Shown here: positions 46,326-63,284 of the stretch, piece after piece
How positions within the stretch are numbered: the first letter of the stretch is position 1
Layout: every line of letters begins with the position of its first letter
Source: a virus
Lineage: Duplodnaviria > Heunggongvirae > Uroviricota > Caudoviricetes
Length of the DNA stretch: 64,000 nt
IMG/VR virus record: IMGVR_UViG_2778261352_000001
Location: 1,199 to 65,198 of that record
Direction: 5' to 3' (one strand)
The notes under the pieces: model-generated
What the model saw: only the letters and a program-made list of their open reading frames with translations
Told to the model about the DNA's origin: nothing
Databases searched by the model: none
Made by a program: the position numbers and the translations under genes

Positions 46326-46398
46326 TGGCTTATCGTCAGGATTAACGGACTCGAACCGCTGACATCCTGCTTACAAGGCAGGCGCTCTACCAACTGAG
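46326..46398 (-). tRNA. tRNA-Thr-like (anticodon UGU), acceptor stem not pairing
   Basis: D arm GCTCAGTTGGTAGAGC, anticodon arm CCTGC-CTTGTAA-GCAGG, T arm AGCGG-TTCGAGT-CCGTT; 5' GCCGGTT does not pair with 3' AATCCTG. Confidence 0.45.
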
Positions 46399-46400
46399 CT

Positions 46401-46476
46401 AAACCGGCATTGGCGATGGTGGATGGATTTGAACCATCGACCCGTTGATTAACAGTCAACCGCTCTAACCACTGAG
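46401..46476 (-). tRNA. tRNA-Asn (anticodon GUU)
   Basis: Manual cloverleaf: acceptor GATGGTG/CACCATC, anticodon loop CTGTTAA, T loop TTCAAAT, encoded CCA. Confidence 0.85.
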
Positions 46477-47154
46477 CTACACCATCACTTGCCGGGTACG
46501 TCTCCGGCGAGGGCTTCCACCTCCGTATGCTTTTCGGCGCACCGCGCCCTGACTGCAATTCGGTAACAGGGGATGCATAACCCTGGCTTCCAGCGTGATT
46601 AGCGCCTTCAGCATGACGGGATATACCCGTAAATTCGTGGAACTGTACCCAAAGTGCTGTTAAGCACCGCTGTTACGCTGAAAAGAAGACGCAACAGGAA
46701 AGGACGCTGACCAACAGATGGCCCCTTCTCGTTCATCTGGTTAATCACACCAGCGCCCTTACCTGTTGTGCCTCCCCGTTCCCTAATACACAGACGGGGA
46801 CACTCTGTGGTCGATTTTTTGACGGGGGACGACTCATACCCCGTGGCGTCTGGCTTCTTAGGCCGCTACCATCATCAGATCATCGTTTGCATTTACTTTA
46901 ATGGTCAGTTTCTAAACCGCCGCAAAGTCGCTAACCATGACGAAAACCCTGAAAAAAACGCCCACCCGAAGATGGGCAAACTGGAAGCTCGTAACGCACT
47001 TCGGTGTTGCCACTTAGGCGCATGGTCAACCTGGCAACTCGGCGTCATGAGGGGGAAGGAGTCACTACCCCGCCATACTTGCCGCCGCGCCTGTCGCGGC
47101 TAACAGCTAAATCGCTCTATAAATCACGATTCATTGAGGCGATATTACACTAAT

Positions 47155-47171
47155 AAATTTATTAGAGCAAT
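47155..47171. promoter_or_regulatory. C1 operator, exact 17/17 consensus (reverse orientation)
   Basis: AAATTTATTAGAGCAAT overlapping dmt stop codon. Confidence 0.75.
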
Positions 47172-62877: not shown

Positions 62878-63284
62878 GGAGAGGAAAGGGTGCATTGAGG
62901 ATACCTGACACACGAAGAGTGGCGGGGATCTCTCCCCGCCAGGTCTCTTACCTTTCAGATTCGTAGGCTGTGAAGACAGTGACCTCCGTCTGGCCGGTTC
63001 GGATTCGTACCTCGCAGAGGTCTTTCCTCGTTACCAGTGCCGTCACAATGACGGTTAAACAGATGACGATCAGAGCGATTAACATCGCTTTTTGCTGCTT
63101 CATAGCCTGCTTCTCCTTGACCTTTTGGTCGGTAAGAGGCTAATCTACGTATGCTAAGCATAGATATGGCCTCAGATTAATGTTAAGCGTCTTGCAGGAC
63201 GCGTAATGTTATCTGGGGCTTTCTTCTATCTGCTTTTCGGGTAATGCCTGAAGCAGATAGCCTCAAGCACCCGCAACGATTGTA

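Follow-up and report, generated by a model that had tools for sequence, protein, structure and literature searches.

The leader of the ban operon contains a tmRNA-derived RNA

What is encoded between the C1 operator and the tRNA genes of a P1-type phage, an interval of about 680 nucleotides (nt) in which no protein gene is apparent? We analyzed this locus in a window of 64,000 nt (IMG/VR record IMGVR_UViG_2778261352_000001, positions 1,199 to 65,198), which represents a P1/P7-type phage, with the leader region being 98.6% identical to phage P7 and 96.4% identical to P1. On the minus strand, the interval extends from the stop codon of dmt, which encodes a 754-amino-acid bifunctional methyltransferase and ends at 47162, to tRNA-Asn and tRNA-Thr. 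The original prediction proposed that it forms a GC-rich structured leader or a discrete non-coding RNA under C1 control. Our analysis identified the interval as the C1-controlled ban-operon leader, the existence and length of which had been known from the P1 annotation, whereas its content was previously undescribed. Judged from the sequence, three RNA modules (A, B, and C) that are conserved independently of one another make up a mosaic leader, with a terminator-like hairpin and a long 3′ hairpin between them, and the central module B (approximately 46952–46683, minus strand, ~270 nt) appears to be a structured RNA derived from transfer-messenger RNA (tmRNA) that keeps the message-like half. 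Together with SmpB, tmRNA constitutes the main bacterial system of ribosome rescue and quality control and is a drug target. Thus, a structured non-coding RNA is present behind a C1 operator and promoter that match the annotation of P1 and P7, but it belongs to a set of three modules and not to one ~680-nt leader, and in place of generic GC-rich structure, the central module is a specific, widely distributed tmRNA-derived RNA with a tag frame and an antisense arm.

In a distant blastn comparison of the leader with 50,697 phage records, the full interval was matched in P1-like phages only, and two internal pieces recurred in many unrelated phages. As predicted, the interval contains no credible open reading frame (ORF): the ORFs on the transcribed strand do not exceed 47 amino acids, the opposite strand has one GTG ORF of 111 amino acids, and none of the interval ORFs matched Pfam or PHROGs at E ≤ 0.1. 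The GC content is raised, but only modestly (51–55% versus 44–50% in the flanks). The self-complementary segments that had been noted are found in the terminator-like hairpin and in the 270-nt core of the window RNA, which folds at z = −3.2 relative to dinucleotide shuffles.

Module B carries a tmRNA-type tag frame

A gathering-threshold Rfam scan of the window returned no tmRNA match. Below the gathering score, a match to permuted tmRNA covers GCAAACGAUGAUCUGAUGAUGGUAGCGGCCUAA, with the window scoring 24.1 bits versus 47 (RF04321) and 14.1 bits versus 84 (RF01850). The same weak tmRNA matches occur at the homologous site in four unrelated phages, PD205 (N4-like), CS01 (T1-like), Kevin (Vi1-like), and Aeromonas phage pIS4-A, and the relatives score 21.6–32.7 bits against the gathering score of 47 for permuted tmRNA. 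The covariance search suggested originally therefore does not settle the identity of the RNA alone, since it yields only a sub-threshold tmRNA (24 bits versus 47) beside the tRNAs.

Analysis of the sequence around this match revealed a single-stranded linker, GAAACUGACCAUUAAAGUAAAU (46891–46912, minus strand), recognized by family conservation and carrying GUAA at positions −6 to −3 before a resume codon. It is followed by the frame GCA AAC GAU GAU CUG AUG AUG GUA GCG GCC UAA (46858–46890, minus strand), which specifies ANDDLMMVAA in 10 codons before the stop. The resume context in the window is GUAAAU directly before GCA, and when its threshold is relaxed, ARAGORN detects its resume consensus together with the tag ANDDLMMVAA. 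The 10-codon frames of the window and of the four phages named above are ANDDLMMVAA, ANDDVVLMAA, ANDDLMLMAA, ANDNAFLMAA, and ANEEMYLAVA.

A pattern scan of IMG/VR found at least 119 stretches, and together with the loci already collected, the pattern matches 124 places, of which 7 are chance matches inside genes without the 10-codon frame. Each of the 117 family loci has a frame of exactly 10 codons followed by UAA or UAG, and AUAA or GUAA stands at −6 to −3 in 115 of the 117, in the context (G/A)UAAAU before GCA AAC. GCA serves as the resume codon throughout the family, and the codon at +2 has A as its second base. The frame-setting rules of tmRNA include a preference for AUAA or AUAG at −6 to −3 (PMC4236655), and with its AUAA/GUAA tetramer, its GCA resume codon, and the A at the second base of the +2 codon, the family obeys the known rules.

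The family contains 26 distinct tag sequences, with substitutions distributed over the three codon positions as 18/9/28 and synonymous changes including GUU/GUA, GAA/GAG, and CUG/UUG. The tags end in MAA, VAA, AVA, AAA, or IAA, with one VAP, and the host-type ending LAA is found in none of the 26 variants; proteins tagged with such non-LAA endings may meet an altered fate. Tag positions 5–8 are more hydrophobic in the phage family than in the host tag ANDENYALAA.

The structure of module B is conserved in relatives

The structure was tested on a 51-sequence family alignment, which supports four elements: the stop-codon hairpin, two H-type pseudoknots, and a 5′ helix. Paired cells amount to 91.2%, versus 37–46% in slid-partner controls, and the covariation score is 0.206, versus at most 0.087 in the controls, with none of 500 shuffles reaching the observed value. 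Fourteen pairs have changes on both sides, with both pseudoknots included. A conserved structure in relatives, which it had been suggested to look for, is thus present.

On the minus strand, the stop codon of the tag frame lies in the hairpin GGC-CUAAGAA-GCC (46852–46864), the counterpart of tmRNA helix 5, which shows GC/AU/CG covariation across the family. Downstream, pseudoknot A (46809–46845) has the stem ACGGGG/CCCCGU and a loop GUCG that pairs with the downstream CGAC, with changes on both sides, and in pseudoknot B (46773–46809), also supported by covariation, CACAGA pairs with UCUGUG inside the loop of the hairpin CCCCG/CGGGG. Fold and alignment further indicate a long 3′ hairpin, CACAACAGGUAAGGGCGCUGG ... 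UCAGCGUCCUUUCCUGUUG, with a variable tip and a U-rich tract behind it (46680–46770), which is a probable 3′ end or processing site of the RNA; the Rfam microRNA-precursor matches to this hairpin are spurious. Pseudoknot 1 was not found upstream of the message, and an antisense arm occupies its place.

The 5′ arm is complementary to the message region of host tmRNA

Comparison with E. coli tmRNA, in which the resume codon was confirmed at G90, revealed that the 5′ domain of the phage RNA (46913–46947, minus strand), composed of the blocks GUUUUCGUC, GUUAGCGAC, UUUGCGGC, and UUUA, corresponds to the reverse complement of tmRNA nts 68–104. Four parts of tmRNA are covered by this stretch: pseudoknot 1 (its 3′ strand), the linker, which is single-stranded, the resume codon, and tag codons 1–5. 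The blocks of the arm are universally conserved in the family: UAGUUUUCGUC pairs with nts 96–106 (GAC GAA AAC UA, tag codons 3–6), GCGACU pairs with nts 86–91, including the frame-setting A86 and the resume codon, and UUUGCGG(C)UUUUUA pairs with nts 68–81, which form the 3′ strand of pseudoknot 1 and the linker.

Alignment of window positions 46947–46913 to the reverse complement of nts 68–104 gave 29 matches over 32 aligned positions with two gaps. The local-alignment score is 27, versus 15.9 ± 2.4 for dinucleotide shuffles, of which 5 in 2,000 reach 27, and versus 14 in the sense orientation. The predicted duplex between the arm and tmRNA has an energy of −38.6 kcal/mol, versus −18.8 ± 3.6 for shuffles, none of 1,000 being as good. 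The best match of the arm in antisense orientation falls on tmRNA nts 68–106 in about 50 of 54 representatives, with 28–32 matches and a median z of 6.35, and perfect 11-mers against tag codons 3–6 as well as perfect 14-mers against nts 68–81 occur. Target nts 79–106 are predicted to be 71% unpaired. The complementarity is thus extended, conserved, significant, and directed at an accessible target, as expected of a trans-acting antisense RNA. The arm pairs with host tmRNA far better than with its own linker and tag in all 54 representatives (median −36.2 versus −19.3 kcal/mol). It matches the host tag codons GAC GAA AAC UAC, which are absent from the phage tags, and it stays constant while the phage tags vary, which argues for the host RNA, and not the RNA's own tag region, as the target.

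The family has no conserved tRNA-like domain

ARAGORN with default settings found no tmRNA in the window or in six related loci, and at thresholds of 90, 80, and 70%, its tRNA-domain assignments were arbitrary. A T-loop pattern search of the whole window found, near the leader, only the T-loops of the two ordinary tRNAs, and no tRNA-like element (an acceptor stem with G3:U70, a T-arm, and a 3′ CCA) is conserved across the family. A duplex search for a helix-2-like partner strand of the 5′ region in cis, from +125 to +600 in the 54 representatives, gave z-scores centered on 0, and blastn-short of the P1 3′ spacer against other family members returned nothing. Since all tests for a tRNA-like domain were negative and none is conserved across the family, module B cannot be filed as a tmRNA. 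Published tmRNA censuses included phage tmRNAs only if a tRNA-like domain was present (PMC4131195; PMC11915505). Two lineages have a sigma-70 promoter (10 of 12 positions) that ends 10–12 nt before the conserved UAGUUUUCG; this position would place the RNA 5′ end 3–5 nt before UAGUUUUCG, leaving no room for an acceptor strand.

Several tRNA-like sequences were observed near the element in some relatives. Odd tRNA-like genes lie ~120 nt upstream on the same strand in PD205 (locus L003, 1311–1382), with an 8-bp acceptor stem and a degenerate anticodon arm, and in Kevin (L005, 1281–1370), with a length of 90 nt and the anticodon ACA. Pairing of these genes with the 5′ region of the element was considered and rejected, since an 11-bp match seen by eye was no better than shuffles. 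In T1-like contigs (L013, L033, L023, L049, and L114) and in L167 (2925–3010 and 3170–3380), long hairpin cassettes with the conserved stems GGUAAGrGCAUUG / CAGUGCUCUUUCC and hypervariable loops flank the tmRNA-like core, and in L013 and L033, the cassette loop contains a canonical T-arm, GGGUUCGAAUCCC. One and the same tRNA-like insert precedes the core in one phage and follows it in another. A 5′ copy of CAGUGCUCUUUCC, examined as a target-site duplication or helix-2 strand, proved to be the 3′ arm of a separate upstream hairpin cassette. A further conserved module in T1-like and related loci (for example, L049, L023, L012, and L107), located +190 to +600 nt past the resume codon, has the arrangement GUGGUGA-hairpin-variable insert-GCCGGAGnUCAGCACCGGC-CACCACA and a compensatory change from CCGG/CCGG to CAGG/CCUG in L015; it is tRNA-shaped with a large insert, lacks CCA and G3:U70, and is missing from the P1 group.

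Module B is distributed over unrelated enterobacterial phages

The leader is matched by 301 GenBank phage records, outside the P1 group mostly through module B, the carriers of which belong to Ackermannviridae, Schitoviridae, Drexlerviridae, Roufvirus, and the P1 group. The core is 70–88% identical across phage families that otherwise share nothing nearby. In E. coli, the element is present in 660 of 5,426 complete genomes (~12%), at 582 places on plasmids and 140 on chromosomes; the plasmids are P1-like phage-plasmids, and RefSeq annotates nothing at the element. Among 185,579 species-representative genomes, 38 pattern matches were obtained, of which 32 are chance matches that lack the frame and serve as a negative control. 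The six real matches lie on enterobacterial phage-like contigs, one of which is filed under a Bacillota metagenome-assembled genome, where it is probably contamination.

The element is co-oriented with tRNA genes in 64 of the 64 loci that have tRNAs within 750 nt. In a lambdoid prophage on the E. coli EC6622 chromosome (L167, 2641–3704), the element, with the tag ANDDVVLMAA, is positioned after Q/PR′/tR′ and before the holin gene, a late-operon leader site that in Stx phages harbors tRNAs and stx. In some GenBank entries, “hypothetical proteins” have been called across the element.

Proposed mechanism and alternative explanations

The tmRNA-derived RNA, its lack of a tRNA-like domain, its antisense arm, and its broad phage distribution are, at the level of sequence, well supported and unannotated. 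We suggest that the interval is a C1-repressed operon of non-coding RNAs centered on this RNA, which would perform a “message swap” on the tRNA-like domain of host tmRNA and SmpB, a proposal that we regard as close to, though short of, an even prospect. In tmRNA, tagging survives replacement of pseudoknot 1 by a hairpin or single-stranded RNA and also the exchange, between species, of the segment from helix 5 to pseudoknot 4 (PMC4236655); these properties are the reason for favoring the message swap. Moreover, the combination of a message module, no tRNA-like domain, and a docking arm is hard to explain by either half alone. Our preferred reading is that of an anti-tmRNA, which would dock on the host molecule and probably put its own tag template in place of the host's.

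In the proposed sequence of events, lifting of C1 repression would allow the RNA to be made together with the tRNAs. P1-type phages have C1-repressed promoters and a terminator-like hairpin upstream of the RNA, so that it would appear only after derepression and only through read-through or processing. The 5′ arm would then anneal to host tmRNA in the linker and tag region, which is largely single-stranded, and invade the 3′ strand of pseudoknot 1; in the predicted pairing, its docking site spans tmRNA from precisely where the pseudoknot-1 hairpin ends through tag codon 6. Annealing would hide the host's resume codon and tag template and tether the phage resume codon and tag template beside the host tRNA-like domain and SmpB. 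The phage strand would emerge by the remaining pseudoknot-1 hairpin, followed by the 22-nt linker and the phage resume codon, giving a topology near the native one. Stalled ribosomes would be rescued on a phage-specified tag by a two-piece tmRNA, the pieces of which come from two genomes. On this basis, a parasitic coding piece that pairs with host tmRNA, silences its tag template, and has stalled ribosomes add a phage tag may be common to enterobacterial phages from at least five lineages that are unrelated to one another (P1-like, lambdoid, T1-like, N4-like, and Vi1-like), a generalization that we put forward tentatively.

Several observations weigh against the message swap. The ribosome would have to load a message that is held to the tRNA-like domain only by a 30-bp imperfect duplex, and RNase III might instead cleave the duplex of the arm with tmRNA. 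With the terminator-like hairpin upstream, the RNA requires read-through or processing from the ban transcript. The coding signal of the tag is moderate, with 14 synonymous versus 27 non-synonymous codon changes, and hairpin covariation accounts for part of the third-position variation in the last two tag codons. The P1-type arm has a 3-nt bulge, one A·A mismatch, and two G·A mismatches, and it leaves a 5-nt bulge in the host strand; it also pairs weakly with the RNA's own tag start, a possible competition. Finally, the antisense comparison covers E. coli tmRNA only, and the likely hosts all share the ANDEN coding start.

As the main rival explanation, the RNA would be purely an antisense inhibitor, a sponge that ties up host tmRNA or leads to its cleavage and thereby stops tagging and rescue, with the tag frame and pseudoknots serving as an untranslated scaffold or intramolecular lid. 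We consider this unlikely, albeit serious: the antisense complementarity is the strongest single signal, the partial pairing of the arm with its own tag start is what a protective lid would show, and as a precedent, mycobacteriophage DS6A has a fragment consisting only of the tRNA-like domain that resembles a molecule shown to inhibit tmRNA (PMC4131195; PMC11915505). Inhibition leaves unexplained, however, the invariant length of 10 codons, the in-frame stop within the helix-5-like hairpin, the AUAA/GUAA tetramer, the Ala-Ala or Val-Ala ends, the synonymous GUU/GUA, GAA/GAG, and CUG/UUG exchanges, and the covariation that maintains two pseudoknots. Furthermore, some phages, namely a lambda-P22 hybrid phage and phage Mu, depend on trans-translation, so that a pure block is not obviously advantageous.

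It is rather improbable that the RNA is the coding piece of a true phage two-piece tmRNA, with the acceptor piece elsewhere in the phage or in an adjacent tRNA-like cassette and the host complementarity being secondary. Such tmRNAs are known from three bacterial lineages (PMC11915505), and this explanation would accommodate the odd tRNA-like genes ~120 nt upstream in PD205 and Kevin, the T-arm-containing cassettes that flank the core in some T1-like members, and the tRNA-Asn that directly follows pseudoknot B in one locus (L052). It is opposed by the lack of a family-wide tRNA-like element, the window having only two normal tRNAs, and by the lack of G3:U70 and of an encoded CCA in the tRNA-like pieces that are present. 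In addition, there is no 5′ acceptor strand, as the promoters place the 5′ end at the antisense arm, and neither downstream sequence nor neighboring tRNA-like genes showed significant complementarity to the RNA.

An ordinary leader or processing spacer of the tRNA operon, or a functionless, decaying relic of captured ssrA DNA, would suit the position between promoter and tRNA genes, the long hairpins that could be RNase III or RNase E sites, and the P1 annotation, which treats the interval as a leader. We consider this explanation, which comes close to the minimal form of the original prediction, very improbable: the core is 70–88% identical across families that otherwise share nothing nearby; the invariant blocks, the covariation, and the fixed frame length are incompatible with drift; and conservation is lacking precisely where the sequence is spacer-like, in module C and at the hairpin tips. 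A conventional small protein, for which ORFs of 30–47 amino acids on the transcribed strand and 111 on the opposite one, together with the GenBank “hypothetical proteins,” might speak and which would have refuted the original prediction, has a negligible likelihood, since these ORFs lack Pfam and PHROGs matches, span module boundaries, and are broken in relatives by indels and variable cassettes, and the sole conserved frame, of 10 codons, is of the tmRNA type and has no start codon (its GCA is preceded by UAAAU, and Kevin has no overlapping AUG).

Operator, promoters, and remaining parts of the leader

The exact C1 operator that had been reported at 47155–47171 was confirmed as the 17-mer ATTGCTCTAATAAATTT on the minus strand, corresponding to Op72a/Oban-a, which is annotated at the homologous position in P1 (NC_005856) and P7 (AF503408). 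The operator shares bases with the stop codon of dmt and with the P1ban −35 box. The second half-site, Oban-b, ATTACACTAATAAATTT (47144–47160, plus strand), was positioned by transfer from the P1/P7 annotation and its sequence read directly; as annotated in P1 and P7, the operator is overlapped by this half-site and by two promoters, P1ban and P2ban. According to the P1 annotation, the sigma-70 promoter P1ban (47142–47170, minus strand) has the −35 box TTGCTC at 47170–47165 and the −10 box TAATAT at 47147–47142, with a predicted transcript start at ~47135. A simple consensus promoter scan did not report P1ban, and the −10 box was found directly in the sequence. A C1 operator consensus therefore overlaps a sigma-70 promoter, as is characteristic of a P1 C1-controlled operon (Op72/Oban). 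Between the promoter and the tRNAs, the P1 annotation has one feature only, a “dicF-like region.”

This region is module A, a two-stem-loop element (47002–47099, minus strand) homologous to ~100 nt just upstream of dicF in Qin. It is matched at ~80% identity in lambdoid and Stx phages and in 4,396 of 5,426 complete E. coli genomes; it is also matched in 61 phage records and is never annotated. The K-12 homologue (L126, 2501–2597) lies between ydfC and dicB in the Qin prophage, directly upstream of DicF, and a stem carries a compensatory change, GUUGCCA/UGGCAAC in the window versus GUUGUCA/UGACAAC in Qin. Identification of module A with DicF itself (RF00039) was rejected, as the window gave no match at E ≤ 10 and the K-12 control scored 76.7 bits; since DicF has no counterpart in the window, the “dicF-like” label refers to the element upstream of dicF. 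No HK022 record, which a put-like antiterminator of HK022 would suggest, was found among the 40 of 61 phage matches listed. Module A may serve in the processing of DicF or act, ahead of the terminator, as an RNA of the antitermination type.

The place of DicF is occupied by an intrinsic-terminator-like hairpin, GCCCAUCUUCGGGUGGGC followed by U7 (46952–46977, minus strand), which agrees with the terminator consensus and abuts module B. It has an 8-bp stem, a UUCG loop, and the U7 tract (stem-loop at 46978–46959), and it is retained in P1-type relatives whose upstream context differs. Module C (46487–46682, minus strand), a spacer or pre-tRNA leader, is conserved in the P1 group only, and the last 214 nt of the interval fold at z = −1.44 versus shuffles, which is not significant and gives no indication of a hidden structured domain. 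The 140 nt preceding tRNA-Asn (46487–46628, minus strand) are near-invariant across P1-type relatives, even with another upstream context or with Arg as the first tRNA; this segment has no homologue outside the P1 group and no significant fold. The leader ends at the genes for tRNA-Asn (GTT, 46411–46486) and tRNA-Thr (TGT, 46335–46407), both obtained by tRNA gene prediction on the minus strand.

Right after tRNA-Thr, the window diverges from P1 and P7 (44110–46334, minus strand), with small same-strand genes replacing plp/upl/tciABC. They include genes for a 423-amino-acid protein with a C-terminal DUF551 and a 128-amino-acid protein, which share the N-terminal motif IALASLEA. Elsewhere in the window, a sok antitoxin RNA of the hok/sok type was found at 63098–63272 (minus strand; Rfam, 114.9 bits).

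Implications for ribosome rescue and annotation

In the full-text literature outside subscription sources, we found no published description of the P1 tmRNA-like RNA, its tag strings, or an antisense RNA to tmRNA. To our knowledge, no natural regulator acts on the tmRNA message itself, and none was found in the searchable literature. If the proposed mechanism is true, this would be the first case of a virus re-programming trans-translation rather than merely carrying or lacking a tmRNA, and of an inter-genomic two-piece tmRNA. It would mean that phages manipulate ribosome rescue and would provide a natural design for blocking or re-programming trans-translation. It would also explain an unannotated conserved RNA in P1, a textbook phage and transduction tool, and in ~12% of complete E. 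coli genomes, as well as in many therapeutic-phage candidates (Ackermannviridae, Drexlerviridae, and N4-like phages). As a consequence for annotation, “hypothetical proteins” are sometimes called across the RNA, and tmRNA and tRNA finders miss it.

Comparison with known systems

Upon comparison with the one-piece tmRNA of Enterobacterales (SsrA; RF00023), the phage RNA shares the resume codon GCA preceded by (A/G)UAA at −6 to −3, a 10-codon tag that starts with ANDx and has two small residues at its end, a helix-5-like hairpin that contains the stop codon and precedes H-type pseudoknots, and linkage to translation-related RNA genes. It differs in lacking the acceptor stem, T-arm, CCA end, G3:U70, helix 2, and pseudoknot 1, in its length (~270 versus 363 nt), in scoring below every Rfam gathering score and being uncalled by default ARAGORN, and in carrying an antisense copy of tmRNA nts 68–104 at its 5′ end. 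It is encoded by phages, whereas the one-piece tmRNA is encoded by the host.

The two-piece (permuted) tmRNAs of Alpha- and Betaproteobacteria and Cyanobacteria (RF01849–51 and RF04321) provide the best sub-threshold Rfam matches, and the mechanism proposed here resembles theirs in that a separate coding piece would act when paired to an RNA with the tRNA-like domain. In these tmRNAs, however, both pieces derive from one gene and the coding piece gives the 5′ acceptor strand, whereas the phage RNA has no acceptor strand, and the only strong partner found for it is the message region of the host one-piece tmRNA.

The mycobacteriophage DS6A fragment is likewise a phage-borne partial tmRNA, and a similar molecule inhibits host tmRNA, perhaps by SmpB titration (PMC4131195; PMC11915505). 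It represents the opposite half, with the tRNA-like domain kept and the tag frame lost, while the P1-type RNA shows the reverse and has, in addition, sequence-specific antisense pairing.

Like DicF of Qin, the P1-type RNA is a prophage or phage RNA with a target-complementary seed that comes from a longer transcript, and the P1 copy adjoins the dicF-linked element. The P1 C4 antisense RNA is another prophage base-pairing RNA. Unlike DicF and C4, the phage RNA is directed at a stable non-coding RNA of the translation apparatus and not at an mRNA, its predicted pairing extends over ~30 bp, versus 7–20 in that class, and it holds a complete tmRNA-type message module.

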